A DNA stretch of 64,000 bases from Macrostomum lignano (lineage: Eukaryota), in the NCBI GenBank assembly GCA_002269645.1, contig NIVC01003213.1:1-64000 (forward strand), written 5' to 3'. The position numbers were made by a program, and so were the translations under genes. The number at the start of each line of letters is the position of its first letter. Position 1 is the first letter of the stretch. The notes under the pieces are model-generated. The model was given only the letters and a program-made list of their open reading frames with translations. It had not been told where the DNA came from and ran no database searches. Of this stretch, positions 175 to 36,319 are shown piece after piece.

Positions 175-696
175 ATGGACGCAATTCAACTACTTAATCT
201 CGCCAGAAAATTTTTGTCTTGCCGAAAATTTCTCATCATTACTTTACATTCACGCTATAAAAATGTTTTGCCTTTGAGTCTAAAAAGAAAATATCGATCA
301 ATTTCCTTTGAAAATAAGTTTGTTTTTGTTCTACGAGTACTACAGCACAATGGTTCATTTGGTCATTGGGTGGTGTGCTATGTTGGACAAGGAAATTGCA
401 TTGAGCTGTTCAACTCCCTCGGCTGGGAACCTGAAATTTTATCTGTGGTTTATAATTTGTTTAGAGAGATTAAAACAACTGGCTTTTGGCTCCGAAGCAA
501 TATAAACAGATTTCAATGTGCTAACTCTAATAAATGCGGAATGTTTTGCATCTATTTTGCTTATCAAAAGTTTCTGTTCAATCGGTCATTTGAGGGGATT
601 TTGAAGCATTTGCATGCTAATGAAAAAAATCATTTGAATGATAGAATCTTACAGAGGTTTGAAGCCAACTTAAGAAAAGATGTGCGTGATTTCTAA
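175..696 (+). CDS. Adenain-like (adenoviral-type) cysteine maturation protease
   Basis: Motifs GHWVV, IELFNSLG and Q-C-x-x-S-x-K-CGMFC (His/Glu-Asp/Gln/Cys catalytic set); Polinton context. Confidence 0.9.
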   Translation: MDAIQLLNLARKFLSCRKFLIITLHSRYKNVLPLSLKRKYRSISFENKFVFVLRVLQHNGSFGHWVVCYVGQGNCIELFNSLGWEPEILSVVYNLFREIKTTGFWLRSNINRFQCANSNKCGMFCIYFAYQKFLFNRSFEGILKHLHANEKNHLNDRILQRFEANLRKDVRDF

Positions 697-712
697 TATT
701 TATGCATTAGAC

Positions 713-1359
713 ATGGCAGAAAAGCGAGTTTGCCACGATATCCGCCTCAGGCAGGGAAGCTGCATGATTGTCTGCGGGCCCACCAATGCAGGAAAAACAA
801 CCTTCATCAAACACCTGATCCAGTACAGAGACGTCATGTTTGATGTGAAGCCTGGCAGAGTTCTGTGGTACTATGGGATCTCACAGGCAGGCCATGCAGA
901 ACTGAGCAGCCTAGGTGTGCAGCTGCGCCAGGGTTTTCCCACCAACATCGAGGCAGCACTTAGGCCCAATGACCTGGTTGTTTTCGATGACTTAATAGAG
1001 GAAACTTCAAACTCTGCTTCAATGCGAAATTTTTTCACAGGAATCGCACATCACTTGCCGTGCTTCTTGGTGATGCTGACTCAGAATATATTTTTTAAGG
1101 GAAAAGAGTCGCGAACAATGAGCTTGAATGTAATGTACTTAGCTATCTTGAAAAACCCAGAGACCAGCTGCAGATTACAGCACTGGGCAGGCAGTGCTTT
1201 ACAGAGAAGCCCGGCTTTCTGCTGTCAGTGTTCAAGCACGTGACCGCGCAGAACAGGGGAGCCTACCTGTTCCTAGACTTTCACCCATCAACTCCCGATG
1301 AGCTGCGAGTGCGGGCCAGAATTCTGCCCAACCAGCGACCCCATCTTGTATTTGCTTAA
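713..1359 (+). CDS. A32/FtsK-like genome-packaging ATPase, frameshifted near 1159
   Basis: Walker A GPTNAGKTT, Walker B LVVFDD, and the LTQN motif. Restoring one A at ~1159 gives KNPRDQLQITALGRQ...AYLFLDFHPSTPDELRVRARILP, ending at TAA 1357-1359. Confidence 0.9.
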
Positions 1360-1401
1360 GAAAGTGAAGCTTGTTTTTTATCGGCTATTGTTTTCATCGC
1401 T

Positions 1402-1740
1402 ATGGAAGTGCTTGATTCACATGCAAGTCTTTTTGCGGTTCTTGCGTCACCTAAATATAACGTGCGCTTCAAGCGGCTGTTGATAAAAAATTGTCCAAAA
1501 GAAGTGCGTTAATTTCTTGTCGAGGCCTGCCATAATCTCTTACAAAACAATTTATTGTTTTCGATCGATGAAAAAGCTGTTCTTGCAAAGTCAAAAGAGA
1601 TAATTCGAAAGATTACTCACAAAAGAAGAAAGACAGACTTGTTGAAGGCTGGCTTCATTAAAATACTCCCGATTCTGCTTAAGCTGGTAAAGAAGAAGAA
1701 GCAAAATGAACAAATTTTCAGAAATGGTTCTGATTCCTAA
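1402..1740 (+). pseudogene. Small basic Polinton/adintovirus accessory ORF with an in-frame stop at 1510-1512
   Basis: ATG 1402 MEVLDSHASLFAVLASPKYNVRFKRLLIKNCPKEVR*FLVEACHNLLQNN...LLKAGFIKILPILLKLV is in frame with ORF 1555-1740. It resembles the conserved small Lys-rich Polinton ORF that ends in a GF-x-x-LLP-x-L amphipathic segment. Confidence 0.6.
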
Positions 1741-2302
1741 AGCAGAGTATGAGATGTTGATGCAGAATTTGAAGCCAAATGAGAATAGCACTGACGCTAA
1801 CTTGAAGCAGGCTCAGAAGAAATGCGATGATATCTTGTATGCCGAAGATTGTCCAGAAGATGTGAAAACCACCATGTATCAAAGTGCAATGCAAAGTTTG
1901 CTGGCCAGACGCAAGCACGCTGGAAAAGAAGGAGCACGCAATACTGAAGCCAAGTTGATGAAAACAGAGACACCACAGATGAACACCTGGGATGAGAAGA
2001 TCAGCAAGTCGGTGCCACAGAAATTCAAAACCAGGGCTCGCAGTCTATGGACGATCCTGTCCACCAATCCAGAGCTGATTCGAGTTTGTGAAAACGGGGA
2101 GGTGGAAATCACAGGCACGTCAATCCCTTCCTCAAACATACTGGACTTGATTCAGCACGCAGTGAGGGATTCGCCATGTGAGCGTGAACCAGTTGGGTGG
2201 AACGAGTTCATTGATTTGCTGCAGCAGAAAAAGCTTAATGTTCCGCTTTCCGCTGTTGGTAAATCAGTTAAAAAAGAAAATGGCAAACAGCAGAGGGAGT
2301 GA
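1706..2302 (+). CDS. Conserved Polinton hypothetical protein (may extend to 2399 if one extra A near 2270 is removed)
   Basis: N-terminal MVLIP and internal KARSLW...GEVEITG..IPSSNILDLI are recognisable from recurrent Polinton ORFs. The alternative frame ends ...KGYGSNTAWLKLP. Confidence 0.6.
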   Translation: MNKFSEMVLIPKAEYEMLMQNLKPNENSTDANLKQAQKKCDDILYAEDCPEDVKTTMYQSAMQSLLARRKHAGKEGARNTEAKLMKTETPQMNTWDEKISKSVPQKFKTRARSLWTILSTNPELIRVCENGEVEITGTSIPSSNILDLIQHAVRDSPCEREPVGWNEFIDLLQQKKLNVPLSAVGKSVKKENGKQQRE

Positions 2303-2427
2303 ACTGGAGAAAGAACAGGAGAGTCTAGTCAAGGGGTACGGGAGCAACACAGCCTGGCTGAAACTGCCTGCCAGAAAAGTATATAAGAAGGTGGACTGAC
2401 TCCGAAATTTCGAGGGAAAGCTGCATC

Positions 2428-3279
2428 ATGAACTACATTGACTTCCAAGGATTCCCGTGCAACAGCACAAGCAAAAGATTTGTTGTGAAAGAGTTGGCAG
2501 TTGTTCAAGTCAGAGCGGGAAGCTACCGAATTGCTCACCATGTGTACGCACCTCCGTATCCATGGGAGAGAGTCTCCACTGACATGCGAGTTTGCTACAG
2601 ACAGCTATCAAAGAGTCTGCACCAGTTTAAGTGGAGTGATGGAACCCGTCCGTACATGGAACTGGCGGAAGACATTCTGAGGATTGCCAGTGGTCCGATC
2701 TGGACAAATGGGGAAAGGAAGGCTATTTTCCTGACTGAGCTGCTTGGTAGACAGGTTTATAACCTAGAAGATTTGGGAGCACCCTCGATTAAAGATTCAG
2801 ATACTGGCTGTGCAGTGAGAAATTCATTGCTGCACTACAGTTGGCTTAAGCCAAAGTTCTGCATCAACTTAAGAAGCGAGCAGTGTCCGTGGCACAGGGG
2901 CAGTGAAGTTGGCAGAAGATTTGGTGAAGAAGTCAAGGATCAAAATGAGTCCACCTGCAGCTACAGCCCTAAGAGTGAGCAATCTGGTTGGCGGAGTGGA
3001 TCTGAGACTGGATGGTGGCAGGGGCGCCCAGCTGCCTCTACGGGAACTGGCTCTCAGCATGGCTCATGTGATCTACCGGCCCGTCTGGCCCCGGGTGCTC
3101 ATCAAGCGGATGCGAAGTCCCAGAGTGACTCTGCTACTCTACCCTACTGGGCAACTGAGCATCTGTGGCGCCAAGACCCACGCAGACGCCAAAAGGGCTG
3201 CCCGTCGCTTCATGGCTATGCTGCATCGGAGAGTGCCGGATCAACTGCTGCCTCATCAAACTATTTGTGTTCGAATTAA
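2428..3279 (+). CDS. Putative DEDD/RNase-H-like-fold nuclease family protein of Polintons (folded domain about 2428-2860; the rest overlaps the TBP-like gene)
   Basis: Motifs YIDFQGF...FVVKELA...HHVYAPPYPW...LHQFKWSDG..PY...TNGERK...VYNLEDLGAP...CAVRN..W. The N-terminal D-x-Q/E strand suggests a DEDD-like fold (inference). Confidence 0.55.
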   Translation: MNYIDFQGFPCNSTSKRFVVKELAVVQVRAGSYRIAHHVYAPPYPWERVSTDMRVCYRQLSKSLHQFKWSDGTRPYMELAEDILRIASGPIWTNGERKAIFLTELLGRQVYNLEDLGAPSIKDSDTGCAVRNSLLHYSWLKPKFCINLRSEQCPWHRGSEVGRRFGEEVKDQNESTCSYSPKSEQSGWRSGSETGWWQGRPAASTGTGSQHGSCDLPARLAPGAHQADAKSQSDSATLPYWATEHLWRQDPRRRQKGCPSLHGYAASESAGSTAASSNYLCSN

Positions 3280-3529
3280 AACTATTACTGCTCATGGACG
3301 TTTTAAGCTCCAAAATGCGCTACCGCTTACTGAACTTCTTAAAGTTTTGCCCAAAGCCCAGTATGAACCAGAAACATTTTCAGCTTTAGTTTGTCAACTT
3401 AAGTATTGTAAATGCTTGCTTTTTCATAATGCTTCTTATATTCTAAGTGGGGCAAAATCTCTGCGTATGCTAAAATCCGACAGTTCTTCCCTGTTTCGCT
3501 CTGTTAACACACTTATGCAACTAAAATAA
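2945..3529 (+). CDS. TATA-box-binding protein (TBP/TFIID)-like protein, intronless, core only (194 aa from ATG 2945)
   Basis: Two TBP repeats align with canonical TBP by eye. VSNLVG...LPLRELAL...IYRP...LIKRMRSPRVTLLLYPTGQLSICGAK..ADAKRAARRF matches LQNIVS...LDLKTIAL...EYNP...[26 protein letters not shown]...SRLAARKY. YEPETFSALV...LLFHNASYILSGAK matches YEPELFPGLI...LIFVSGKVVLTGAK. Confidence 0.88.
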   Translation: MSPPAATALRVSNLVGGVDLRLDGGRGAQLPLRELALSMAHVIYRPVWPRVLIKRMRSPRVTLLLYPTGQLSICGAKTHADAKRAARRFMAMLHRRVPDQLLPHQTICVRIKTITAHGRFKLQNALPLTELLKVLPKAQYEPETFSALVCQLKYCKCLLFHNASYILSGAKSLRMLKSDSSSLFRSVNTLMQLK

Positions 3530-3891: not shown

Positions 3892-6542
3892 TTATTGCAT
3901 CCTCATTTGCTTGGGAGCCTGATCAGCAGCTAGTTGAGGTGCTTCTTGATTGTAACGGCGGCAGCTGTGGCGGCAGGGGTCTCTTAAAGCAAAGTGCCCA
4001 TACGGAAGACTTTGGTTTGGGGAAGTCCACGCACGCTTGTCCTCCCATACAGTCAGAGCACGCTTCTGTTGCTCTAAAGTGACTACTCTGTGTCGTCGGC
4101 TAGCGATTCTGCGTGTCAAGACGCGAAGCTCCTTCAAACTGGCAAACGCCTGCATGTAGTCATCGTGTGTGATTTCTGCCCGCAGCACACTCTTCTGAAC
4201 ACCTTTGGCTGCCTTCTTCCCTCCAGACTCGGCCTTCATCGAGTATAGTTTTGGTCTCAAAAGGATCCATTCACGATGGGGGTTGCCTGCAGATTCGTCC
4301 TTTATGCAGCCTAACTTGGCTTTTAGATCATCGGATCGGAATTGATGGTCGGCCGGGAAGTTTGAGGTATCTAGCAATCGCTGGCGAATGAGTTCTGGTA
4401 GAACAGCACTCTGAACATCGATGTTTTTAAAGCACAGAAAGAAGGAATCGGTGTCCCCACCGCATAGGGAAACTCCTTGTTGGAGAGCAGGATTCTCAAA
4501 TGTTGGCTTTAGCTTTCCATAGTACAATCGGTACATCGCCAGCTTAGAGTCATCTAAAACACATTGACCAACGTAGATTGGGCGGTCAAGAGTGACTGAT
4601 GTCTTGAAAAATTGAAAAACTACTAAGTCTTGAGTCACAATCGTAAAGTCCTTAAGATTCGGACGCGATGAATAGATTTCGGACTGCTCCTCGTTGTTAG
4701 AAATTCGAACACTGAGCCTCTTCCGTACGTTTTCCATCGTTTTGCCGAACAGGGAGTTATTCTTCAGTTTGTAATAGTCTTTTTCGAATTCCGTTGTAGC
4801 CACTGAGCGCTTTTTGCTGTTTCTGTCAATGTAGGCTTGGAAAATTGCAGCTTGACAAAATCGAATAGCTCTTCGGATCTTTTTTAGTCGCATACCGTGA
4901 CGCAAGTAGAACTTCAAAATTCGGAAATGTACGACGTAGGATTCCTTGTCATGACATGTGAGTAAAAGTTTCACACAGCCTTTGTACGGCTCGTTGCGAG
5001 TGTTCAATTCGCCCCAAAGACGTTTCATGAATGGCGGAAACTCTTCGAGCTTAGGCGCGGCCTTCTCGGGGGCAAATGGCAAATCTTGTGTCTGCGTGTG
5101 GATTACATCTGGATATTCCAAATCAACCTCAAATAGGTAGCCAACTGGACCATCGTCATCCAATTTAAGTAGCTTCTCTTCTGTCCATTCACACAGTTCT
5201 TCTTCACTAAGCCACTCAAAGTCACTGACGGGTAGTTTTTCGGACAGCGCTTGCCCGTAGAGATTATTCATGTCTACGGGGAGCAAAGAATTTGTCTCGG
5301 CATTAGAAGCTGCGCTTGATGAATCTGCACCATCTGACGACTGGTGACTGGTGACTGGTCCGGCAGTAACATGATGAACGTTCGTGAAGGTCATTCCTCC
5401 ACGAATGCCAAGCTCAAAGAGTCTGTACTTCTCAGCATCGTCGAGCAACTGGAGCGGTGTTGGCGCGGATTTCAGCGCGGAATCAAATGATAGACCTGGT
5501 GTAGTAAAGTAGTGGGCTGGGTCAAGACCGTCATCATGGAGACTCAAACGGCGAAAGTTCTGAAAACATCGGCAAGTTGACGGATGTCAAGCTGCAGGTA
5601 GGCAAGCATGTAGTCGTGCAAATTTTTTGCTTCGATCTGCTCCCAGGCTTTGCGCGCATGAGCACAGCTCTCCTCACTGCAAGCTGTCTTTGTCAGAGAG
5701 TTGAAAAACTCTTCTCTGCTCGGAAGTTCGGTCACTGCCAAATTCGCGGGGGATTTGACGAAATCATAGGGAAAGACTCCCTTGATAGACAATGTTTCAT
5801 TAGTTAACTTTGGAAAGCAGCTTTTCATTTGCTGAGTGAATTTTCTGTCCTGGAGAGGTAAGTTGCGAATCAGTTTGTCTAGACCCGCGTTTAAAAACTG
5901 GAATGAATCGAGGAACTGCAGAGTGAAGAAAATTGTTTTCTTTTTGCCTTTCGGTAGAGTGATTTCGGCGATTGGGAAATCTATTCGAAGAGACATATAG
6001 CGTTCAGAAGTCTGAGGAATGACACTCAGCTTCCAGTTTTTCATATTTCCTAACGCTGTTGAAAACAGGAGGTGCATGTCATAATTTCGGAGATTATGGA
6101 AGAAAATCGGCAGAAATCTTCGGCGAAGTTGCGCTAATTTGTTACACCGTGAACATGCGGCGCCTTTGAATTTTCCAGTCAGATGATCATGGTCATAGTG
6201 CTTGTCATTAGTGTCAGTAAACTGTCGATCACAGTAATGACAGTTGGAGGATTCACTGAAGATTTGACTAGCAGTAGTGTCTGCTTCAGCCGTTTGGTAG
6301 CTGTGCCTTCTGTTCCAGTCATAGACTTCTCGAGCCACGCGTTCCAGCTCATGAAGAAACGTTTCCATACACTCCAATGGATTTGAACTGGAGACCAACT
6401 TCACATGACCTTGATCCTTGAGTGGTGGTCCCTTCATGCCTTCACGAGCAACGAGTAGAAATCCACCCGCTGCAGGCAGATGCTCGGAAATAAAGACGGT
6501 TTTGCCAGTTACCATGCCCTCATCTGGTCTTGCTTGTACATG

Positions 6543-6577
<35 letters not shown>

Positions 6578-8536
6578 GTGTGCTGCAGACTTGCTCATTG
6601 TCGCTGACCTCCATTTCCTCAACCTTCTGATGCATGACCTCTCGAGTGTGGGGGCCTAGCGGAGAATTAAATGCTTCAATATCAGCATAGATAGCGAACG
6701 GTGCTTCAATAGTTTTGAAGTAGTTTTGAAAAGACAGCACGCTGCGCTTCTCAGTAGGAACTCGTTCCTTGACAGCAAACTCATTAGAGCGATAGCACTG
6801 CTCTCTGTGCTCACTTAGCTTCTGATCAGTTACGAAAGAGCTCAAGCAGCGTTCACACCATTTTCTGTGGTAAAGACCGCTTTTACTGTTTAGTAGCCTA
6901 TCAAGGCTCACAATTCCGCACCAGTGTTTATCCTCTTCATCCTTGTTAGCTGATTTGTTCAATAGTAGGAGAAGAACTACTTTGCGACTGCATGCGACTT
7001 CAACTCGTGGCTGCCTCAGCACACTGACACCGTTACTGCTTGACCAAGAAAAAACTACAAAACATAACCTCGGGTTCAGTAATTCGATTCGATTTAGCTG
7101 GTTGAGTCCAACGGGTAAGGAAATTCCTGAAAGATTGATATCGTTCAACCAGTCCTTGTAAGTAGAAAGCCTTTGAGGGTTTTTCCTCAAATTCTCATCA
7201 CCGTGATGCAGCACTGCAAGGCAGGCATACAAAAAACAATCAGAGCCAGTACTAGGAGGATTGATGACGGCTTTTTTGCCTTCAGCAGAGGAGGTAATTC
7301 AAAATTGCTTGCGTGACCAGAGTAGAAGCGCAGTCTTTGACCAACCGCAATATTCAAGTCGATGCAGTTGACGCGCACAATCACCCAACCACTGCCATTT
7401 GTGTTCATCTTCTCAATGATGCCTTCGCAACCATCAATCTGCTGCTTCCACCAATCATCAAAGCAAGCGGCGTCATTGACAGGTTGCAAACGAGTGCTTA
7501 CCCATCTTTCTTCCTGGTTCACCACTTCACCAGCTTGGATTCTGTTCATTCGGATGCTCATTTTTAGCTGCGCTCTAACTAAAAGATTTGGATTCACCAT
7601 CTTCTCGAATACAATTCGCTGTATTGCTTCCCTGCTCCGTCGGGCGAGTTCAAATGGGTCACATGGTGCATCGCTTGGCACGGAAATTCGATACACCACC
7701 AGAGTTTCGTTGTGCGCACTTGCTACTTGCTGAATGTCTAAAATGAAAAATTAACAGCTTTGCTTATTTTCTGTTACTCAAAAGATGGTATTCCATGATA
7801 ATGAAATTTAGACTCAATAAGCACACTTAAATCGAATTTCTCGATTTTTAAATACAAAACTTCGAATGCACCCAGGAATTAAATAACTTAAGGCTGAAAT
7901 TAAAAATGTTGTTGACTCACGATAAGGATGAATATTGCTGGCACCGTTGTTTTCGATCAAGCTGAGTTCACTTCCTGCACTGCCGCCGCCGGTGTCGCTT
8001 CCTGCACTGCCGCCGCCGGTGTCGCTTCCTGCACTGCCGCCGCCGGTGTCGCTTCCTGCACTGCCGCCGCCGGTGTCGCTTCCTGCACTACCACCGCCGG
8101 TGTCGCTTCCTGCACTGCCGCCGCCGGTGTCGCTTCCTGCACTGCCGCCGCCGGTGTCGCTTCCTGCACTGCCGCCGCCGGTATCGCTTCCTGCACTGCC
8201 GCCGCCGGTGTCGCTTCCTGCACTACCACCGCCGGTGTCGCTTCCTGCACTGCCGCCACCGGTATCGCTTCCTGCACTGCCGCCGCCGGTGTCGCTTCCT
8301 GCACTGCCGCCACCGGTATCGCTTCCTGCACTACCACCGCCGGTGTCGATCAGACTGGAACCGCTACTAGCACAATCTTGCTTAGTGTTGTTGGTGTCGG
8401 TTTCAGAGAGCCCATCGAAATCACTCTCCGAGTAGTCTGCCCCGGAACTTGATTCAGACCAATTATCTTCGCTCTCTGATTCTGACCAGCAGTCACAATC
8501 GGACTCTGAAAACTCGCTTGAGTCCTGCTCTGCCAC
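3892..8536 (-). CDS. Protein-primed family B DNA polymerase (pPolB) with an endonuclease VII-like insert; split by two 1-nt frameshifts and a predicted intron (7920-7738)
   Basis: Segments 8536-7921, 7737-~7272, ~7271-~5563 and ~5562-3892. Motifs: GSGW, ExoI YADIEA, DHDHLTGKFKGAACSRCN (Endo VII-like), FFHNLRNYD, FLDSFQF, KGVFPYD, IRGGMT, DMNNLYG, KLKNNSLFGKT, GDTDS. The start codon/first exon was not located. Confidence 0.95.
7971..8348 (-). repeat. 27-bp coding tandem repeat, ~14 units encoding DTGGGSAGS
   Basis: Unit ttcctgcactgccgccgccggtgtcgc on the + strand; open in the PolB 5' exon frame. Confidence 0.9.
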
Positions 8537-8874: not shown

Positions 8875-8950
8875 CAAAAAAGGTTGAAAACTGGGGCTAC
8901 GACCGGTGCTGCCAAAAAAGGTTGAAAACTGGGGCTACGACCGGTGCTGC
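8875..8950. repeat. 38-bp direct repeat, 2 copies
   Basis: caaaaaaggttgaaaactggggctacgaccggtgctgc occurs twice in tandem. Confidence 0.85.
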
Positions 8951-9228
8951 TTGAGGCAGTTCTAGATTTTCAAAAACTTGTATTCATATTTGAGTCAACA
9001 ATTACATGATTGGCTTATTTAATTGTAGATTGATACTACTAAAAGCTATGATGCTCGAAATATTCTATCTAGCTTTGCTAATCGCTATTGATTTAAACAA
9101 AAAACACTTCTTGGCTTATTGTAAATAAAAAAGCTAAAGTACAAATTAAAGTAAAAAAATGTAAGTTAAACTGAATTTTTAAGATACACAATAGCCAAGA
9201 ATGACCAAGTGACCAAGAATTCGCTTGC

Positions 9229-10395
9229 TCAACGAGACACAAAAATAATGCTGTCATTTTCAATTTTCACAATATATCCTGCTCCAATTACTGGTGGCAG
9301 CACCAGTTGCAGTTGGTATCGAGGTACGACATTATTAGCCGCCTCAAATTCCCCGTCTCCCAATACCTCCATCAGGGAATCCAATCCAGCCGGTTCTTCA
9401 ATAATGTTTGGCTGAGCAATCTGTTCACCAATGTTATTGATGCTTGAAAGCTGCTCGCCGATGCCTGGAGGCTGCTGCTGCTGCTCGCTGATGCTAAGAG
9501 GCTGCTGTTGCTGCTTGCTGATGCTGGGAGGCTGCTGTTGCTGCTCGCCGATGCCTGGAGGCTGCTGCTGCTGCTCGCTGATGCTAGGAGGCTGCTCGCC
9601 GATGCCTGGAGGCTGCTGCTGCTGCTCGCTGATGCTAGGAGGCTGCTCACCGATGCCTGGAGGCTGCTGCTGCTGCTCGCTGATGCTAAGAGGCTGCTGT
9701 TGCTGCTCGCTGATGCTGGGAGGCTGCTGTTGCTGCTCGCCGATGCCTGGAGGCTGCTGCTGCTGCTCGCTGATGCTAGGAGGCTGCTGCTGCTGCCGCT
9801 CGCTGATGCTAAGAGGCTGCTCGCCGATGCATGGAGGCTGCTGCTGCTGCTGCTGCTCGCTGATGCTGGGAGGCTGCTCATTGTTGATAGCAATGTCGCT
9901 GTCCTCAGTCTCCTCATCGGTTGGCTCTTCGTACAGAAGGCTGTCGGGACTGTCCATGCGGATCTGCTTTCCTCTGATATCCGGGGGATGTCTAGCCGAC
10001 TGAGCAGCGAGTGGGCGTTGGAATTGTGACTGCTGCGGCTGCTCAACAAAGTCATCATCGCTGCTACAGCCGTCTCTAATTACACCGTTTATTAATTGGC
10101 TGAGAGCCTGTCGTGCAGCGGTTTGCTCTCCGGCTATTTGATGCGCTTTCTGCATAACTATGCGTCTTAAATTTTTCATTCCATTGTCTCCAGTAGGCAG
10201 CTGCTGATGCCCGCGGTGAGCTTTGAATTTTCCCGCTTTTCCTTCACGCTTCATTACAACGCCACACTGCCAGCAAACGTTGAAAGTGCTCTTGTTGCAC
10301 TCTTTGTGATGGCCAGGCTTTAAAAATCCAACAACGCACTTGTTGCAAGTTAGGCAGACTTCAAAGGTAGCATATGAGTCGCTAATCTTCTTCAT
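9229..10395 (-). CDS. Polinton accessory protein with an N-terminal Cys/His cluster and Gln/Pro-rich repeats
   Basis: 388-aa ATG ORF with CxxCxxC...HHxxC...CxxC...H..H at the N-terminus and (QQQQPPSISE/PPGIGE)n at 9430-9870. No family recognised. Confidence 0.55.
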   Translation of the reverse strand: MKKISDSYATFEVCLTCNKCVVGFLKPGHHKECNKSTFNVCWQCGVVMKREGKAGKFKAHRGHQQLPTGDNGMKNLRRIVMQKAHQIAGEQTAARQALSQLINGVIRDGCSSDDDFVEQPQQSQFQRPLAAQSARHPPDIRGKQIRMDSPDSLLYEEPTDEETEDSDIAINNEQPPSISEQQQQQQPPCIGEQPLSISERQQQQPPSISEQQQQPPGIGEQQQQPPSISEQQQQPLSISEQQQQPPGIGEQPPSISEQQQQPPGIGEQPPSISEQQQQPPGIGEQQQQPPSISKQQQQPLSISEQQQQPPGIGEQLSSINNIGEQIAQPNIIEEPAGLDSLMEVLGDGEFEAANNVVPRYQLQLVLPPVIGAGYIVKIENDSIIFVSR

Positions 10396-11528
10396 TGTTG
10401 CGGCGGAAGTGAGAATTCGGAAGACTGCAGTTATTTTTCACTTCATTTATATATATACAATTTGCGGAACACTGACCACTGAATACAGTACCCTCCAATC
10501 CCCATTAAATGTACATCATTATTTGTTCCCCACCAACCCCAATCCAGTTGTTCCTCAAACCGACCAATCCTCTCCAATCAGCATAAAATGTACATCATTA
10601 TTTGTTTCCACCAACCCCAATCCAGTTGTTCCTCAAACCGACCAATCGAACCCCCCTCCCTAATTTTCTTTCCAAGAACGGTGTACACAGCGCAGTTGTT
10701 GTGGTAGACTAGAAGAATAATAATAATTACTCGTACACGCCGATATTATTCTGGCGCAATAACAAACTTTGTGCTTAGTAGACCCCAGACCTTTATCTAA
10801 TAAAATTTCCCACAATATTTACTTTATATTAATTGGGCTTCGTTCTGTACCATAAACCGCCTATACAGTTGTAAAACTGAGATCAACGGAAGAGCCTAGC
10901 AGTGAGAGCGTCGTGAGCCCCAACTAGCTTTTATGATCCGAACACTGTATCATCCAACCCTTCCGATTTTCATACCTATATTTTTCCCTTTACACCGCCG
11001 GCAAGACTTGAACTAACCACAGCTCTGCCTAGCCCCTTATATCTCTCAGTGTACAATGGGGAGGGGGGGACATAGGTGCGTAGGCCTGCGCCATTGCTTA
11101 ACCAACCTCAGACACATACAACGCCTAATCCCCTCCTCTCGGATTTCCCCCATCCCACTTTCAAACCCAATGCAATAGGGCTCTATACTACCATGGCCCT
11201 CCTATCTCCGCAGTGCAAGTGCGGCAGAGTCTGGGTTTTTTGTGCGAATGGGTGCGAATAGCATCCTGGTCTTAAAAATCGCACCCTGAAATTTGACTCA
11301 GGGTGTGAAAAGCGCACCAGAATTTTTTGCAAGGATGTGATGCGGATTTCACAATTTAGTGTTATGTACGTCTTTAGTGTTATTAGTGTTAGACCAGTTT
11401 TTGTCTGCAGCAGTGCAGCGCATCCTGGTCTTGAAAATCGCACCCTGAAATCTAGCACAGGGTGCGAAATCGCACCCAAGTTATGGACGAAAAAACCCAG
11501 GGCAGAGTTGCATATGCGTTTCACCACT

Positions 11529-12253
11529 AGAGTTGAACAACTGTTTTAGAGCTCACCTCTCTGTCCCTGCACAGTGAAAGTGCGGCAGAGTTGAACAACT
11601 GTTTTAGAGCTCACCTCTCTGTCCCTGCACAGTGAAAGTGCGGCAGAGTTGAACAACTGTTTTAGAGCTCACCTCTCTGTCCCTGCACAGTGAAAGTGCG
11701 GCAGAGTTGAACAACTGTTTTAGAGCTCACCTCTCTGTCCCTGCACAGTGAAAGTGCGGCAGAGTTGAACAACTGTTTTAGAGCTCACCTCTCTGTCCCT
11801 GCACAGTGAAAGTGCGGCAGAGTTGAACAACTGTTTTAGAGCTCACCTCTCTGTCCCTGCACAGTGAAAGTGCGGCAGAGTTGAACAACTGTTTTAGAGC
11901 TCACCTCTCTGTCCCTGCACAGTGAAAGTGCGGCAGAGTTGAACAACTGTTTTAGAGCTCACCTCTCTGTCCCTGCACAGTGAAAGTGCGGCAGAGTTGA
12001 ACAACTGTTTTAGAGCTCACCTCTCTGTCCCTGCACAGTGAAAGTGCGGCAGAGTTGAACAACTGTTTTAGAGCTCACCTCTCTGTCCCTGCACAGTGAA
12101 AGTGCGGCAGAGTTGAACAACTGTTTTAGAGCTCACCTCTCTGTCCCTGCACAGTGAAAGTGCGGCAGAGTTGAACAACTGTTTTAGAGCTCACCTCTCT
12201 GTCCCTGCACAGTGAAAGTGCGGCAGAGTTGAACAACTGTTTTAGAGCTCACC
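11529..12253. repeat. 58-bp perfect tandem array, 12.5 units, in the Polinton subterminal region
   Basis: Unit agagttgaacaactgttttagagctcacctctctgtccctgcacagtgaaagtgcggc at 11529+58n, with no spacers. Confidence 0.97.
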
Positions 12254-15011: not shown

Positions 15012-18000
15012 ATGGCCTGTAAAACTGCAGTCATCACAACGGTTGCCTTGCTCTTGTGTCTGACGCTAGTTGCTGGTAACTATACCGGTATTTTAATTTT
15101 TCACATACTGTATACAGGCCATAAAGTAGTGCATGTAAAATTCATGGTGGTGATGGAAGTTACATCTAGGCGGGACTCATCTCCACTTTACTCCGCAGGT
15201 GCCACGCGTTAGCCATGAAGTAGGCATGAACTTTATAACTGGCATTGATTTTTCTGAATACAGTGTAGTCAAGGCTGTGGGATTCTATCCCCGATCTTGC
15301 GTTCAAAGCGTTCATTCCAATGTTCATCTTTCGATATGTCCTGCCTTTCTAAGAGATCTAGTGTCGCATTCATAGAACTTTTCGTTAGGAAAATTTAGGA
15401 TTCCATATTAATTTTATATCCTACATACATGTACTGTTGCCTAAAAATCATAAAAATGGAATAGCTCGTACAAAGGACCAATTTTGTTGGGCAAACCAGT
15501 AAAATCAATAGACAGAAGGTATCTGGGTCAGAAGGGTTCGTTAAATTATTTTTAAATTGAATGTAAACGGATTTTTTGAACGATGATCCCTTTTGTTATG
15601 ATAGAATTGTTTAGATTTTCATTAACGGATGCCTGTAACACTGCTCATTTGTGCATTAAAAGTTTCTGAATCTTCAGTTGTCAGTTAGCTTGAACCGAAA
15701 ATTTCTGAAAGAAGCTTAGCTCACTGCCTGAAAACGTTTTTTGAGTTAGGTGAATTACATGTAAGAAGAAGAGTCACAGCCATAGTAACACGGAGAATGC
15801 TTTTGAATGCATTTTCATTTGCCCCAAGTAATTGGCATTTTGTTCATTACTACAGAGAGCTGGCACACAATGCTAAAATTGTAGGCAAGACAGGATGCAA
15901 TAGCGTTTTTGAGGTGGAAGCCAAACAGCTAATTAGTATAAAGCTAGACTGTCCCAGCAGCTGCAAGTAAAATACCTTTTGTCTTTTTGTCAAAGTAATG
16001 AGAAAAGCATTCGCTAAACTTGCAGCAGACAACACTTGCCGGTGGCAGTCTTCCTGTAATTCTAGCCTATAGCATCATCAATTTTTAATTGTCTTGCTAA
16101 CAAGCCTCCCTCAACTTCCCCTCAACATTAAGGGTTGCTCATGGATTCAAAGGATTTACCTTTGGGAGCTAATTGAGCTGTCATCAAAAATTGGATGACA
16201 AACAGCATCTACTAAATGTTAGCAAGATTAACCACATCATTTTTTCCTTGACTAGCCCCTGGACACGCAGTGGAGCGTCTAAAATACTTCTAAAATAAAA
16301 TATGGATGTTAACTACGATTTTTTGAATTCATCAAACAGCTACTACATTCAAAAGAAATACCTTTATTACACAGCTGTGCAGCATGTCTCTGACTTCGAA
16401 CTGGTGTTTGTTGGCAAGAACAAATCGGCCCAGACATCATCGAGGTACTCGGGCACGGCGGACCCCATCCATGTCAACGATGGTGTCACCAATAGATACA
16501 TGATTCATTCAGCAGCTGGAGACCCAATGCCGTGGGTGATGCTGGACATGGATCAGCCGCACGCCGTGTTCGGTGCTCGTGTCTGGAACCGGCTTGACAA
16601 CACCTGGAACGAAAGATTTACGCAGATCAGCTTTGGTGAGTGAAGTTGGTCTTTAGTCTTTGCTTATTGTCTTGATTTGGACCTAATCTATTTGTACTTA
16701 CTTAAGTACTCTAATTCCCTCCGCCCTGCCAAAAACTCCGGCCAGGTAATTAAGCTACCTGGTGTTGTGTCGTGTAACTTGACGGGTCAACTAAATGATA
16801 ATATTGTTACGCTGAGATTTCTAATATAGTATGGTATAACGTAACTGCTAACTATATTATTATTACTGTATTTTACTTATACTGCCACTTTCAGTAGAGT
16901 AGTTGATAAATTGTCCGTATAATGTATTATTTATTGATCACGTGATATCTCTGGCTCTTTAATTTATCGATCGTGTAGTTTTCTAGTGTGGACAGAATAT
17001 CGATCATGTAGTTTTTCTAAGGTGACTAAAATATAAATAAAGCAACTGTGCGCAACTGGCACTTTACTTTCAACTACAACTGGAAACCTCAAGTCTTGGC
17101 TACACAACAACTGGCGACGAGGATCGACTAAGATGGCTCTCAACGTTAGCCCACCTGCACCATTTCTGCCAACAAGCGGATCACCGGCGGTCCCATGGAA
17201 CAGATGGCTGGACGCATTCGACTTCTATTGCCAAGCAGCCAAAATCTGGACACCCCGACCGGCAGGAGAAGAAGCCCCGACTGATGAGGCTACGCGACTG
17301 GTGACAGTGTGCAGGAACCATCTACTGCACTTCTCGGCTTCGAGGGGCAGCGGATTGCAAGGGCCCGAAACGCGATTGTCGACGGTCATACCTTTTGGCA
17401 AACCCCGATCAGCTGACGACGGTATTTGGTGACCGACCAAATGTGATGTTGGCGCGTCATCGATTCAGGGAGCGACAGCAGCTGCCGGGCGAAGACGCAG
17501 TCACGTTCGTCGCAGCGCTACGAGAGCTATCAGCCACGTGCAGCTACGGACCTCTGGCAGACGAAATGATCCGCGACCAGCTTGCCCATAAGACCAGCAG
17601 CACTCGAATACGCGAGCGTCTTCTGACGGAGGACGCCGCCAGGCTGACACTAGAGCAAGCAGTTGTCATCGCGACTACGATCGAGGACGCGGCGGCAGGC
17701 AGCAAGGCGATGGCGGCGACCAGCTCCTTTGGAAGCGTCCAGACGGTGCGGCAGGCAGCGAGGCGACAGGGCCCCGGCAGCGCTCCGCCAGACAGCAGGT
17801 CGCAGCATTCAGCCAAAAGCTCCTGCACCCGATGCGGACGGAGCCACGAGGCCAAGGCGAAGTGTCCCGCGCACGGCAAGAAATTCAACAATTGCGGGGA
17901 TTTGAACCACTTCAGTCGATGCTGCCGCAGCAAGGCACTCCAAGTCAGCGCAGACGAGACGGTCATGATCTAAGCGGTGCATGGCAGCGACGAGATCCGA

Positions 18001-19733
18001 GTCGAGCTTCAGCTGGGCACCTGCTCGAAGACTGTCAGCCTGATGGTCGACTGCCGCGCCAAAGTTTCTCTGCTCAACGAGGCTACGGCGAGAAGTCTGA
18101 GCGACATCAATCTAAAGCCATCGACAGTACAGCCACGAGCTTACGGCGGGAAGAAGATCGCCGTCGCGGGGCTCGCAACAGTCTGCGTCAAGTACTGCAG
18201 CCAAGAACTGCAACACGACTTTCACGTCACTAGGTCGGGCGAAAATATCGTCGGCCGCGATCTGATGCAGAAGCTGGGCATCCAAGTGCGACTCCAGCCT
18301 CACGATGCCAACATCGGAATTGCCAACGTGGACATCGCCAGCGAGTTCCCAGCTGTCTTAAAGCTGTCTTAACGCCCTTAAAGCATGGGTATTAATGTAC
18401 TATTAATTTAGTAAACGCTTAACGTAACAAGTTTCAGGAGGCGAAAATATTTAGGATGAGAAAACAAACTGAATGTTGAATTTGATTTTGAACATTATTA
18501 TTGCAAATTTATTAAGGAAAATGATGTTTAAAGCAAAATGCTTCCGCTATGAAATTCAGCTACCTAGCCTAAGATATCAGCATCCTATTTGAGCTTTTGC
18601 TCAAGGCTTCTGATCGAGCAACCCACCATGAGCCACAGCACTTCAGCAATCAAACCATGGTTCGTTACACCTCCCAATAAGCCTTGATATCTCAGCAATT
18701 GGTAGAGGCTACAGCCTAGTGGTCAGAGCGTCGGACTCACGACTGAAAGGTTAGGGGTTCGATTCGCGATCCACTCGGAACGATTTGTGTCCTCGAGCAA
18801 GACACCTAACTCTGCATTGCTTCAGTTCACCCAGCTGTAAAATGGGTGCCAGCATTAGCTGGGGTAAATTGGTAATTTAGTGTGTGTGATGACCCCCCGG
18901 TCCTTGGACTGAACAGCCGTACGCAGCCTTCAGGTAATAGTGACCGTACAGTTTCAAAAGCTACTTGCAGTTTATTAAAGAGTTTATTCCTTTCTTTGTT
19001 GCCTCCCGGGGGCGAAGGTTGCTAGTTTACAGCTAAAATAATTTCTGGGTATCGAGTTGAACTCGTTAGAGACATGTTTCAGAATAAGTGCTAAGATATG
19101 AATTTTCAACTTTCGGTTGCCTGCCTACCTAACCTATTTAATTTCTTTTTAAGACTTTGAAGTTGTCGCTATCCCACCTCTGCCACCACAGGTGTGACAA
19201 ACAACCCCGCCGTGTGGACTGCATTCAATTCACACCTGTTTCAACTGTGCTTCTACTACACGGATGTGCCCACTGTTGCTGACAACCCGATCAAAGTCAA
19301 CTGTTCCAAGCCCATTGTGGGCAGGTATTTCGCTATTTACAAGAACATTACTGGACTCTCTTCATCGCAACAGTACATCAACATATTTGAGATTGATATC
19401 TTAGCAAGTGAGCACCTCTGAAGATTGTAAATCCAGTTTGCTTTGCTGTAGCTAACGAATCCAAAATATTTGTTTTCAGTGGCTAAGGGAGCCTCCCTGT
19501 GCGTCAGCAGTGCTCAGTCCAGCTTCCCAGCTGCATCAAGCGCCCTCCTGACCCGATGGTCCGGCCTGAAGAGCCCTCGGCTGGACTGCATCTTCAAGTG
19601 CACGGCGCAGCCGGCCTGCCTGTTCGCTTTGGTCATTCCTGGAAACGGCGACTGCCTTCTGTTCGGACCGAGCGGGGGTCTGGCCGGCTTCATCGGCGGC
19701 AGCTGCTTCCGCTGCGTCGCCGTTCTTGAGTAG
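15012..19733 (+). CDS. Secreted F-type-lectin (fucolectin/F5-8C)-like protein with a C-terminal PAN/apple-like domain; exons 15012-15075, 16375-16635, 19192-19407, 19480-19733
   Basis: All GT-AG junctions are phase 1 and join in frame. Signal peptide MACKTAVITTVALLLCLTLVA; H...PW..LD...NRLD....R lectin-like motif; C..PIVGRY; C-x3-C-x4-C...C PAN-like tail. Confidence 0.75.
16763..18372 (+). mobile_element. Truncated, decayed Ty3/gypsy LTR retrotransposon (5' LTR, PBS, gag, protease) in intron 2 of the lectin gene
   Basis: LTR 16763-17109 bounded by tgttgtgt/acacaaca. PBS at 17112. gag starts MALNVSPPAPF...PWNRWLDAF, with frameshifts and a degenerate CCHC knuckle pair; the protease motif is degraded (LMVDCRAKVSLL). 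The element stops before RT. Confidence 0.85.
17112..17124 (+). promoter_or_regulatory. Primer-binding site, complementary to the tRNA-Ser(GCU) 3' end
   Basis: TGGCGACGAGGAT lies 2 nt after the LTR end and is complementary to the ...ATCCTCGTCGCCA end of metazoan tRNA-Ser(GCU), as recalled from knowledge. Confidence 0.75.
18705..18960 (+). mobile_element. tRNA-derived CORE-type SINE
   Basis: A-box (agcctagtggtcagagcg) and B-box (ggttcgattc, 18756-18765), then tgtgtcctcgagcaagacacctaactct...cttcagttcacccagctgtaaaatggg, which aligns with the MIR/CORE consensus. The 3' boundary is approximate. Confidence 0.75.
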
Positions 19734-26991: not shown

Positions 26992-28816
26992 TTATAGCAG
27001 ACAGGCTGGCGAGGCCGAAGCTCGTACGGCTCTCGCTGGCCAGTTCTGGATCAGGAAGGTGCTCAACCATGGCGCTAGGAAGCTGCTCCGGCAACTCCGC
27101 CTCAGGTTCAGCCCCCTCAGGCGACCCAGGTGCCTTGGCCGGCCGGTCCACTGATTCGAGTGCGCCAGCCGCAGGCCGCTGTCTGATTGGTCCGCAGGGG
27201 CTACCAGCGCCGTGTTCTGGCCGTGCTGCACCACGAACTTGGCCGGAACCGGCAAAAATCCTGGACGCATCCTCAGCCAGATTGGATCGCCCACCTGCTC
27301 AGTCATGGTTAGCGGGTGGCAAAGGCGACGACCCCACATCAGAATGTCCGGAGAAGCCGCTCTATTTCCACTGGGCTGGCTGGTCCTGATCGTCAGCAGC
27401 AGTTTCTGCAGGAAGTGGTCGAATGGCACTATCTTCGTCCACGCCTTGAGTCCATCCTTGATGATCCTCACCAGCCTTTCTGCCTGACCGTTCGAGGCCG
27501 GATGGTACGGTGGAGTGTGCAGCTCCTGGCACCCGATGCTGCGCAGCCACTGGGACACTTTCTCCGACTTGAACTCCGGCGCATTGTCCGACACCAGTGT
27601 CCGAGGCACTCCGTTCCTGGCAAATACCGCTCTCAGAACTCGCAGGACACTGTCCGCAGTTCGGTCTGGCACCTGAATCGCCTCAGGCCACCCGGAGTAG
27701 GAGTCCGACAGCAGCAGTAGCAGGCTGACACCAGAAATCTCACAATGGTCCATGTGAACCCGGGACCACGGCTCACTCTCGGCTGGCCAGGTGTCGATTC
27801 TTCGCTGCAGGACTGGCCAAGTTTCTGAACACTGCTGGCAGTGCTCCATAAAGCTGCAAACATTGCGATTGAGACCCGGCCACCAGAACTCCCTGGAGAT
27901 GTGCGCCTTGGTGTTGTCGGTGCTTAGATGCACCTCGTCGTGCGCCACCTCCAGAATGCGCCTGCGGAGAACAGGTGGGGGCACAATTCTGGTTCTGTGG
28001 ATCACCAGACCATCTTCCACCGACAGCGCCTCCCGGCACGCTTTGTACGGCCTCTCCACCTGCGACACCTGGCCCCACTGGCCTGTTCTGATCCTCTGCT
28101 GCAGCCGCTTCATCAACGTGCACATCCTGGTTCCCTCACGAAGATCCTGCAGAGTCACAAGAGCTCCTTCTGACACGACCTCTTCATGCTCCAACTGGTG
28201 CATGGCGTCACTTGGAGGGTCTTGGGCAGCAAAACTCAAACGAGACAAGGCATCTGCATCCACCATCAGTCTTCCTGGCACATACTCAACCTCGTAGTCA
28301 AAAGCAGATAGTCGCAGGGCCCAGCGAGTTAGTCTTGCCGACACTGTTTTAGGAAGGTTCTTGCTGGGATTGAAGATGTACTTCAGTGGCTCGTGGTCAG
28401 TCTGGAGCGTGAACCTCTTCCCCAGGAGCATCTTGCGGGCTCGCTCCACTGCCCAGACAATGGCCAGAGCCTCCCGCTCAATGTTGGAGTAGTTGGCCTC
28501 AGACTTGGTCAGCGCCCGAGAGAGGTACATGACTGGGTGCCCTGACTGCACCAGCACAGCGCCCAGAGACTGCTTGCTAGCATCCACCTGCAGACACACC
28601 AGCGAGTTGACAGCAAACGGTTTCACACACGGATTCGAGCTCAGGCTCTGCTTCACATTGGTGAATGCTGCCTCGGCAGCCGCACTCCAATCAAACACAC
28701 AGTCCGCTCGACGAAGTTCCTGCAAAGGCCAACACTTCTCAGCAAAGTTGGGAACCAACCGACCATAGAACTGCGTCAAGCCCAGAAACCGCTCGAGATC
28801 CTTCTTGCTTTTCGGA
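26992..28816 (-). pseudogene. Gypsy pol 3' part: RT end, RNase H and integrase
   Basis: FLGLTQFYGRLVPNF, VDASKQSLGAVL, NYSNIEREALA, TDHEPL (RNase H); H-x4-H...C-x2-C, HMDH, SDNAPEF, YHPASNGQAER (integrase DDE). It is cut from the RT by the MITE at 28817. Confidence 0.93.
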
Positions 28817-29114
28817 CATACATGCGCAACAGTTGGCCGAGTCGGCCGATCCGGCCGACCGATTTGGCGGCCAACCAAGGAAGTCGCAAAAATGCCCACC
28901 CGAAAAAATACCTAAGTAGTAGTACTAAGTAGCTGACGAGGCAATTTGACTTAATAAGACAGTCATAGTTACTCCTGCCGTTTACCCAAAGTTGCGTTAA
29001 TTTTGCATTACGTTTTTTTTACATGTAAGTCGCATTTTTGGCCAAAAACTACGTCGCATTTTTGTTAAAACTAAGTCGCATGGCCGACCGAATTTTAGAG
29101 GTTGCGCATGTATG
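28817..29114. mobile_element. hAT-type MITE, copy 2, inserted in the gypsy RT
   Basis: Same 14-bp TIRs; 8-bp TSD ttttcgga (28809-28816, 29115-29122). Confidence 0.93.
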
Positions 29115-30364
29115 TTTTCGGAGCCTCCACATCCTGAATCTTCTGCACCATTCCCAGATCCGGCTTGATCCCCTCTTCATCGATGATGTGGCCCAGGAAC
29201 TTTAGGCTTCTGGCCTCCAAAATGCACTTCGCTTTGTTGATTTTCACATTAGCCGCCCTCAGCTTGTCCAGCACCTTCTCTCTGATATTCTGCAGCTCCG
29301 CCTTTGACACTGCTCCCATGAGCACATCATCCTGGTACACGATGACACTTGGGTGCTCACCCAGCAGCTTCTCCATCTCGCACTGGAACACAGACGGAGA
29401 AACCTTGATGCCATACGGCAGCCTGTTAAAGCGCTAGCAGCTAAAAGGGGTATTGATTATGGTGATGTCTTTTGACTCATTTTCCAGTGGAACCTAATAA
29501 TAAGCGTCAGATAAGTCCAGTTGGCAGAACAACTTCTTGTTTGCCATCTTTGAGAAGGCTGTCTTGATGGACGGAGTCAAGTACGTCTGGTCCTGCACCC
29601 ACTGATTGACAGCAGTGTAGTCTCCGCAGATCCTCACAGACATCTTGTCGGATTTCACCGTCACCACAATGGGGCTGCCCCACTCTGAGGAAGTCACCTT
29701 CTCAACTATGCCCGCCTTCTCCATCAGGTCCAGCTCCTTCTTCACCAGTGGACGCAGCGCCAGCGGCAGCTCTCTGGCTGGTTGGAAAATTGGCCTGGCT
29801 CCCGCCTTCAACAGGATCTCGCCAACTGCTCCCTTGATGCCCAACAAGCTCTCGTACCTGTTGTTGCTGGGCGGCTTGGCCTCATCTGAGTGGTGAGCTG
29901 GCAGCGAGCTGAGCAGATCCTGGCCGAGCAAACCAAACTTCTGCTTGCATTCGATGATAGGCAGCTCCGCCGGAGCGAAGCGGCCATCAGGGCCGCCAGT
30001 CTCCACCAGGCACTCCAGGATGCTGAGCTGCTTCATCACGTGCCCGTCGTAGGCCAGCATCCGAGACTTAGGCAACTTCAGTGGCGGCCTGCCAAGTTCT
30101 TCCCAGATCTTTCTCGAGATTAGTGAGCATAAGGCGCCACTGTCCTTTTCCATTTTGACCTGCCTTCTGTTGATTTTCACATCGCAGAATGCAGCAAGGG
30201 TGCCCGCACCGCAGTAGAAAACTAGCTCGTCTCTGGTTACAGCTGAGTCAGAGTGCTTGGATTCGTTGGGTGCGACAAAGTGGGTCCTGGCACTCCGGCA
30301 GACCTTCGCGAAGTGGCCAGTCTTCCCGCACTTGTGACAGGTGACCTTCAGGGCTCGGCAGTCT
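28915..30364. repeat. 1,450-bp direct duplication, copy A (MITE right part plus gypsy RT/PR/gag end)
   Basis: Matches 36320-37769 at a constant offset of 7405; the ORF tracks are identical. Confidence 0.95.
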
Positions 30365-30475
30365 TTGACTTACTTGACTTAGCTGCAGGGTGGTCCGTAG
30401 ACACAGCGGGGAGGCGAGGGTCGCCCATTCCGCTAGCCCCTGAAGGCCCGCAGACAGGCAGAGGCGTGGGGCCGG

Positions 30476-34180: not shown

Positions 34181-34182
34181 TA

Positions 34183-35649: not shown

Positions 35650-36319
35650 AGCTGAAAGCGGGAAGGAGTGAGCTGAGTCACAAAAGAAAGAGGAAAGAAG
35701 AAAAAGAAAAGGACCGCTAGCGACCGGACAACCCCCCGGCCTTCCAGCCCATCGGCACGGTCAAACACCTTAGGCATTAGGGGGTACGTTAAGCAGTACC
35801 ACGGCCTGCAGGCTGGCAAGCCAGACCCGCATACCCAAATTCGGCCGAAGCCACTGGATGGGTCGCCAGCGTCGGAGCCCAGTCTGTCCAGCAGCCCTAG
35901 GGTCTGCCTTGAACACACGCGGGGACGAGTACCCTGGGTCGACTTGTGAAACAGCGTGAGGGGGGGGGGTCTGCGGCTGCCAGTGGCAAATAGCGGGTGC
36001 AGACCTCCCTCTCCAGCCTTGACCTGCTGAATATAGGGGCAGGCGTGAAGCATCGCAGACCGTAGCCCTTAGGCCTGGTCTGTCTCATACTTCACTGGCG
36101 TGCTGAATACACCTTCACGTGCTAAGTAGTACTATGACTAGTACTATCATACTGCCCCAGGACCCGACGGCATTGTACCGGCCCTTCTAAGAGAGGCGGT
36201 TAAATGCCCAGGCTTCCTGCGCAAACTTTGCAGCCTTCTTCGGGCATGCATCACGCTTGGTTATGTCCCGCAGGCATGGACCGAGGCAAAGGTGATCTTT
36301 AACTATGACTGTCTTAAGT

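Follow-up and report, generated by a model that had tools for sequence, protein, structure and literature searches.

A Polinton (Maverick) of Macrostomum lignano encodes a two-lobed TATA-binding protein (TBP), and three Polinton groups of this genome (A, B and C) carry a TBP gene, which is a stable component of the elements under purifying selection. Most virion-module genes of these elements are preceded by a strand-specific, promoter-like word, and the element-encoded TBP is probably a late-gene initiation factor, comparable to the herpesvirus TBP mimics, that recruits host TFIIB and RNA polymerase II (Pol II). The window analysed is the stretch of 64,000 nucleotides at the start of contig NIVC01003213.1, and its features are collected in Table 1.

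The 194-aa product matches the Pfam TBP profile PF00352 over two stretches (E 6.7e-21; 74.4 bits against a cut-off of 22.9) in a profile search that the first-pass annotation had proposed, and all 35 matches at E≤1e-3 in a sequence search of the PDB are TBPs or TBP-containing chains. An AlphaFold2 model (pLDDT 95.7), made from a 92-row alignment with cellular TBPs among its rows, has the saddle fold and matches solved TBPs in Foldseek at TMq 0.75–0.84. The first-pass annotation had described an intronless, core-only TBP-fold frame with both repeats, two GAK motifs, a YEPE stirrup and changes at two of the four intercalating phenylalanines, and all of these are present: CGAK at residues 74–77, SGAK at 168–171 and YEPE at 140–143, with F145 and F160 kept, and P49 (next to W48) and Y66 at the other two positions. 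The gene is likewise on the same strand as the protease, ATPase and capsid genes and convergent with the protein-primed polymerase gene (pPolB), as had been stated.

The copy in the window starts inside the capsid gene at the contig start, and only the right end of the element is present. The gene order is capsid end, protease, ATPase, PW-like, PX-like, Maelstrom-like and TBP, followed by pPolB on the other strand and the terminal inverted repeat (TIR). The labels PW (also Cupiennin-like), PX and penton are presumptive, being based on gene order and appearance. This copy has broken frames for ATPase, PW, PX and pPolB but an intact TBP frame.

Table 1. Positions of element genes and putative signals in the window.
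Feature	Position	Strand	Evidence
Major capsid gene (double-jelly-roll), 3′ end, cut by contig start	1..170	+	98.6% DNA match to C96
Adenain-like protease	175..696	+	Peptidase_C5 E 0.002, below cut-off
CTTAAGAA word before packaging ATPase	669..676	+	Core 42 nt before ATG
A32/FtsK-like packaging ATPase, frame broken	713..1358	+	Walker A; weak Pox_A32; tblastn to intact copy
CTTAAGAA word before PW/Cupiennin-like gene	1355..1362	+	Core 45 nt before ATG
PW-like and PX-like genes, both broken	1402..2325	+	Gene order, appearance; no Pfam hit
TATAAGAA word before Maelstrom-like gene	2382..2389	+	Core 44 nt before ATG
Maelstrom/DEDD-like ORF, its last 111 codons in the -1 frame over the TBP N-lobe	2428..3279	+	Atlas lead PF13017, score 0.88, lead only
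CTTAAGAA word before TBP gene, inside upstream ORF	2868..2875	+	TAAG core 75 nt before ATG
TBP gene	2945..3529	+	194 aa, core only; Pfam, PDB matches, model and fold search, dN/dS
Recurrent recombination point, TBP N-lobe/C-lobe boundary	3285..3300		Identity drop at ~3290
AATAAA poly(A) signal overlapping TBP stop	3524..3529	+	Sequence
Protein-primed DNA polymerase B, several pieces	3892..7549	-	DNA_pol_B_2 E 1e-6; tblastn
Canonical TATA box (TATATATATAAA) before Cys-rich ORF 9229-10395(-)	10445..10456	-	Sequence
Right TIR, ending TACTACT at 12754	12071..12754		Matches both C96 ends

A complete sister copy (G000:C96), 98.6% identical and 17.2 kb long, has an integrase, TIRs of ~700 bp and a 6-bp target site duplication (TSD). 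TIRs with AGTAGTA/TACTACT ends and 6-bp TSDs bound the complete copies C96, C110, C494, C84, C114, C2183 and C1157, and sister copies also encode an rve integrase and a PC4-like gene. A capsid homologue from C84 was modelled at a pLDDT of only 50; its top fold matches, which include the Sputnik, PBCV-1 and faustovirus major capsid proteins, are all double-jelly-roll capsids (Z 13.8, rmsd 6.6 over 328 residues), and PHROGs and PDB sequence searches with the capsid protein gave no naming match. The elements thus share pPolB, rve integrase, ATPase, protease, double-jelly-roll capsid, TIRs, AGT ends and 6-bp TSDs with the Polintons/Mavericks (adintoviruses) described in the accessible portions of PMC8502044 and PMC8097293, the capsid being assigned by fold on a low-confidence model and the protease and ATPase by weak Pfam matches, motif and gene order.

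The element also contains tandem arrays of 58-bp units in the TIR (11529–12240) and of 27-bp units in a small ORF (7968–8350), as well as Gln-rich repeats inside the Cys-rich ORF (9400–9880), and positions 8913–11528 have no alignment to C96. Elsewhere in the window, frames that are retroelement-like by appearance occur at 17305–18372, 26995–30369, 30479–35760 and 36902–38635, including Gypsy-like gag/pol pieces and a LINE-like ORF of 1244 aa preceded by another ORF, and there are long simple repeats at 48–53 kb.

With 150 of 234 candidates scored, the genome contains at least 151 matches to the group-A TBP; of the best 98, 95 are free of stop codons. Duplicated contigs inflate the copy counts: host TBP and host TRF2 each occur three times. 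The group-B TBP is ~38% identical to that of group A, and its best 40 rows are at 71–100% to their own query. Group C has 80 genome matches, a different gene order, a deoxynucleoside kinase (Pfam dNK E 1e-19) and a gene that is dUTPase-like by appearance, the last two seen at G000:C1680, C593 and C362 (L184–L241). A tblastn search had suggested that group C is without a TBP, and this was ruled out by a profile search that found the gene in five of nine stretches, the other four being possibly incomplete; two of three group-C proteins score above the Pfam cut-off and the third matches at E 3e-4. No TBP-less Polinton group was found among the groups examined, with 111 of 420 capsid candidates scored.

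Among nine representatives of group-A subfamilies, dN/dS is 0.09–0.45 for the N-lobe (36 of 36 pairs) and 0.07–0.38 for the C-lobe (26 of 36 pairs computable, 10 saturated). The low dN/dS, the fixed position in TSD-bounded copies and the many copies bear out the first-pass proposal of a stable, selected element gene, and the genome search, dN/dS and phylogeny that it called for gave many intact copies, ratios below 1 and a placement apart from host TBP. A passenger host retrocopy evolving neutrally is exceedingly improbable: the gene is intronless in groups A and B, although the host TBP core is also one open frame, and the 24% identity to host TBP and dN/dS far below 1 refute this reading, and the fixed position in TSD-bounded copies speaks against it. 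Grouping of A and B with host TBP is also rejected in an AU test (p 0.018, quick tree).

Several copies depart from the common arrangement. Group-C TBP frames (L207, L210, L222, L226, L228, L239) begin at a pyrimidine-rich stretch ending in AG with no suitable ATG, which suggests a spliced 5′ end, and in C362 the TBP frame continues into the kinase gene. In the group-B copies C254 and C1157 (L173–L176) the integrase is followed directly by the protease; since the capsid genes are missing and yet C1157 is TSD-bounded, these look like deleted non-autonomous copies. G000:C272 (L228–L229) has a 1.7-kb inverted duplication of the left part of the element, 99.9% identical.

In two quick trees the group-A and group-B proteins form one branch on the eukaryote side (SH-aLRT 99 and 95) with database proteins P0003-5, P0007-9, P0021 and P0027, of which P0003-5, P0007-9 and P0027 are assigned by the tree alone; monophyly of A, B and C together has a support of 50. 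The closest named database relatives are M. lignano gene models. Public gene models (P0024–P0026, P0028) have parts of the Polinton TBP spliced into unrelated host genes, so that databases list the gene under misleading names. Among 1.84 billion representatives searched, no more than eight matched at E≤1e-30: four gene models of the host, three members of the clade and a doubled plant TBP. Close kin are therefore narrowly spread. Scans of viral contigs confirmed no relative, and a metagenome scan gave 26 loci at 19–29% identity, of which the 14 inspected are archaeal-, eukaryote- or giant-virus-like by appearance and none is Polinton-like. Short core-only TBPs (P0074, P0096, P0121, P0076, P0116, P0117 and others), many from metagenomes and a number of them showing N159T/V161T together with P191 loss, could derive from other virus-like elements; those including P0074, P0096 and P0121 fall near the clade without strong support.

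The TBP gene is a hinge between the virion and polymerase modules. At ~3290 identity to other subfamilies drops from 94–99% to 62–72% and the depth of the DNA run drops ~9-fold, the N-lobe staying linked to the virion module and the C-lobe to pPolB. This is the point at which at least nine saturated variants of the C-lobe are joined to a few types of N-lobe (L110–L129); in L127 there is another crossover, close to the end of the ATPase. That PolB lineages exchange virion modules had been proposed in general terms in the accessible part of Starrett 2021.

The overlapping -1 frame shows signs of dual coding. Sites at which a T would risk a stop in the -1 frame have it in 0 of 18 cases in the window copy, against 39% in controls, and in 0 of 12 in group B, against 30% (p 0.014); synonymous divergence in the overlap is pS 0.30–0.36, as against 0.52–0.74 in neighbouring genes of the same pairs. 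The frame is open over the whole TBP N-lobe (2947–3279; L080, L126, L127) for 107–129 codons in groups A and B and has a Ser/Gly-rich extension. A Maelstrom-TBP fusion by frameshift was considered as a general feature and rejected, an in-frame stop lying 0–31 codons before the TBP ATG.

Residues are numbered below as in yeast TBP. In all 18 A/B-type proteins N69, V71, T112, L114, E186, P187, E188, F190 and F207 are invariant, the DNA-face residues among them being N69, V71, T112, L114, F190 and F207, and F116Y, T124C, N159T, V203K, K120Q/H, V122S/T, V161T/S and P191S/T/N are altered, most DNA-contact positions being those of Table 1 of PMC12529657. The stirrup residues E186 and E188 are fixed in 18 of 18 and are D/E in group C, and L189 is variable among A/B-type proteins. 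The F99 position is P in group A, with W adjacent, and is of uncertain register in B and C, while R98, R196, K201 and K211 are mostly altered in A/B-type proteins. Groups A, B and C all have F116Y-P117, V122S/T, N159T/S and V161T/S, but P191, lost in all 18 A/B-type proteins, is retained in 7 of 7 group-C rows (6 distinct). A DNA face that was rewritten and then frozen fits a new specificity better than decay, and with the phosphate contacts R98, K120, R196, K201 and K211 and F99 changed, DNA binding could be weaker.

The Polinton TBP shares the two-lobed saddle, N69, V71, F190, F207 and the E-P-E stirrup with cellular TBP (PF00352). It differs from cellular TBP and TRF2, to which it is 21–27% identical (24% to host TBP and 21% to host TRF2), in lacking an N-terminal extension and in F116Y, the F99 change, N159T, V161T, T124C, V203K and P191 loss. 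With F190, F207 and N69 present, and F116Y, F99 to P and N159T, it therefore departs from the four phenylalanines and the N69/N159 pair of a canonical TBP. The likeness to TRF2/TLF suggested by the first-pass annotation is not supported, since host TRF2 (Y/R/H/F at the four Phe positions) retains only F207 and the Polinton TBP (P/Y/F/F) retains F190 and F207; TRF2 also falls apart from the Polinton TBPs in trees.

Upstream of most virion-module genes, at 33–110 nt (up to ~165 nt) from the start, lies the word, which resembles CTTAAGAA in groups A and B and is TATAAGCA in group C. Neither the word nor the Maelstrom-like frame overlapping the TBP gene had been noticed in the first-pass annotation. 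In complete copies TAAGAA, for the most part as CTTAAGAA, occurs on the sense strand before the integrase, penton-like, ORF130, capsid, ATPase, PW-like, Maelstrom-like and TBP genes, and the CTTAAGAA word precedes the TBP gene in 31 of 32 distinct intact group-A copies. The distance from core to ATG in A/B is mostly 33–56 nt, with 63–81 nt for TBP, 102–108 nt for capsid, ~147 nt for ORF130 and 10 and 93 nt for the group-B penton-like gene. TAAGAA ranks top of the 4096 6-mers in the pooled A1, A2 and B elements, with 20 occurrences inside upstream intervals, to which ~19% of the block belongs, and 6 outside them (Bonferroni p 1.6e-6, with a strand ratio of 26:0 over the three lineages), the intervals having been set after the motif was seen and A1 and A2 being related. 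In group C it is TATAAG, mostly as TATAAGCAA, that is enriched (21:8 inside versus outside, Bonferroni p 5e-7, strand ratio 29:1, four elements), although in C362 alone it is outside the top four 6-mers; in all four elements the core lies 41–54 nt from the start of the penton-like and PW-like genes, and before capsid the distance is up to ~165 nt. The word is missing before the protease in A/B, the ATPase in B, and INT, PX or ATPase in some C elements. Because it falls in different reading frames of the upstream genes, it is a signal at the DNA level.

The outer genes, including the PC4-like gene, have the canonical TATAAAAG, TATATAAG or TATAAATA, and TATAAAAG also precedes the group-B TBP gene in 15 of 16 cases. 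Aligned to a TATA box, both words have G at position 6. Position 1 is C in 18 of 24 hand-picked group-A sites and 3 of 7 group-B sites and T in group C, where the strict T1-A2 arises partly by construction since the sites were picked by TATAAG. Informative positions run from -2 to +5/6 around TAAG, favouring this register over the alternative in which TAAG corresponds to TATA positions 5–8. According to the available text of PMC1636458, the TBP C-lobe binds the 5′ half of the box, Pro191 is suggested to bar a base other than T at position 1, G is accommodated at positions 3 and 6, and ordinary TBP can bind TATAAG, the word of group C. The pairing of P191 loss with C at position 1, and of P191 retention with T, is the most specific link between protein and word, seen in only two or three independent lineages. 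An AATAAA lies within 45 nt of the TBP stop in eight of nine group-A subfamilies, in keeping with Pol II transcripts, and is absent there in the one group-B copy tested. Contigs of presumed RNA runs cover genes of both strands but are uninformative as to expression level, strand and start site.

In the favoured reading the outer genes would be started by host TBP at canonical TATA boxes, and the viral TBP would bind the 8-bp word in the minor groove, where loss of Pro191 may admit C at position 1 and the common changes V122S/T, F116Y, N159T and V161T may suit G at position 6. The intact E-P-E stirrup, judged from residue conservation, would recruit host TFIIB and hence host Pol II, since neither was found in the element. 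This would amount to an early/late switch in which the viral TBP serves the capsid, packaging and integration genes, the late-gene role being read from motif position. No Pfam TFIIB match occurs in the element ORFs scanned or the listed element loci, a very divergent cyclin fold being possible among the unnamed ORFs, and the 13 TFIIB-family matches in the genome are on 7 contigs that have no listed TBP copy. Since the group-A TBP gene is behind its own word in nearly all copies (31/32), the switch would need a bootstrap, and the varying spacing (10–147 nt in A/B) counts against the mechanism. Groups A and B each also have a gene like that of the PC4/p15 coactivator (L074:7305–8033(-) and L061:6795–7433(-)), preceded by a canonical TATA box, whose product is a possible partner of the TBP. 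The idea in the first-pass annotation that the element redirects initiation to its own promoters thus gains specific support from the TAAG-core word.

Alternatively, the word could be no more than a weak TATA box of the usual kind, recognised by host TBP or some other factor, with the viral TBP supplementing TBP activity, for example in cells with limiting host TFIID or in Pol III service through Brf. We regard this as unlikely. Wild-type TBP tolerates G at position 6 (PMC1636458, in the part available), group C and some group-B sites begin with TATA, and the same acidic pair also binds Brf1/2 (PMC7221094, accessible part), but the predominance of C at position 1 in group A (18/24) places there the base that Pro191 is suggested to exclude, and the DNA face has been rewritten and then held invariant rather than kept canonical. 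The protein could also be a decoy, whose stirrup would bind host TFIIB or Brf with poor DNA binding, dampening host transcription while something else reads the word. The fixed E-P-E and the changes at F99 and five basic DNA contacts would suit a decoy; however, the concave DNA-facing residues are the most invariant part of the protein across lineages with saturated dS, and a matched word co-occurs with the TBP and co-varies with it at position 1, which makes this reading quite unlikely. Of the host-shutoff decoy put forward earlier, the TFIIA part is doubtful because the E93 and N91 positions, presumably those that contact TFIIA, are changed, and the TFIIB part is the less likely use of the stirrup.

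TAAG might also be an initiator for the RNA polymerase of a baculovirus- or nudivirus-like helper, as virophages borrow helper promoters, with the TBP otherwise employed. Almost every site agrees with the baculovirus late motif [A/T/G]TAAG, whose TAAG core is described in the accessible text of PMC13483298, and the varying spacing is also in keeping with such an initiator. Against this, the information extends over ~8 bp, the footprint of a TBP, and differs by group outside TAAG, the outer genes use canonical TATA boxes, and every group examined carries a TBP gene, so that a helper polymerase is a distinctly improbable reader. A search of the genome for LEF-8 gave no match, but neither did its controls, and it is uninformative on this point.

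The virus-encoded TBPs nearest in role to the proposed late-gene factor are the beta- and gammaherpesvirus mimics such as KSHV ORF24, which, as described in the available parts of PMC12529657 and PMC6541308, have in common with it a virus-encoded TBP fold, host Pol II and a variant TATA box before structural genes, and polar residues at the V122, T124 and V161 positions. ORF24 is a 752-aa protein with Pol II-binding and extra DNA-binding domains that acts in a six-member complex, reads TATT and has a model described as incompatible with direct TFIIB binding, whereas the Polinton TBP is a bare 194-aa core with the TFIIB stirrup kept and a TAAG-core word, and has neither the large multidomain form nor the TATT motif. 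A divergent viral TBP fold is also found in the Nucleocytoviricota and in poxvirus VITF-3 (PMC7221094 and PMC12917281, accessible parts), and Foldseek matched giant-virus TBPs at 10–20% identity. The large-virus TBPs vary at two stirrup glutamates, come with their own TFIIB and mostly serve a viral RNA polymerase (PMC7221094, same portion); in the Polinton TBP both acidic residues are invariant, and no element TFIIB or polymerase was found. The Polinton TBP is thus neither a TRF2 nor a member of the herpesvirus TBP family, nor is it shown to be of the giant-virus TBP/TFIIB type.

The first-pass annotation had placed TBP outside the canonical Polinton gene set and left open whether it had been reported; one printed mention of a TBP-like gene exists. 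In a literature search on Polintons, Mavericks or adintoviruses with TBP or promoter, whose scope lay outside most subscription journals, the one relevant mention was a TBP label in a related element in the legend to Fig. 5 of Starrett 2021, which in the part available does not reveal the element meant and has no text on function or a promoter word. The accessible text of PMC8097293 has nothing on element promoters, and that of PMC10675990 mentions TBPs in mirusvirus-like elements.

These observations bear on whether animal Polintons are autonomous viruses and how their capsid genes are timed, and in the literature accessible to the search no promoter or transcription factor was found described for them. 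If the proposed mechanism is correct, a bare TBP core borrowing host TFIIB would be a third route to a viral late promoter inside the nucleus, and the Polinton TBPs would form a natural series of variants altered in DNA specificity. All three groups examined have a TBP and a word, and Pro191 co-varies with position 1; on this basis we suggest, tentatively and as somewhat short of probable, that a viral TBP with its matched private word is an ancient control switch common to many animal Polintons. Such a switch would be the smallest known late-transcription system and a natural altered-specificity TBP, and would provide direct evidence of an autonomous virus-like programme in which one minimal protein reprogrammes host TFIIB and Pol II.
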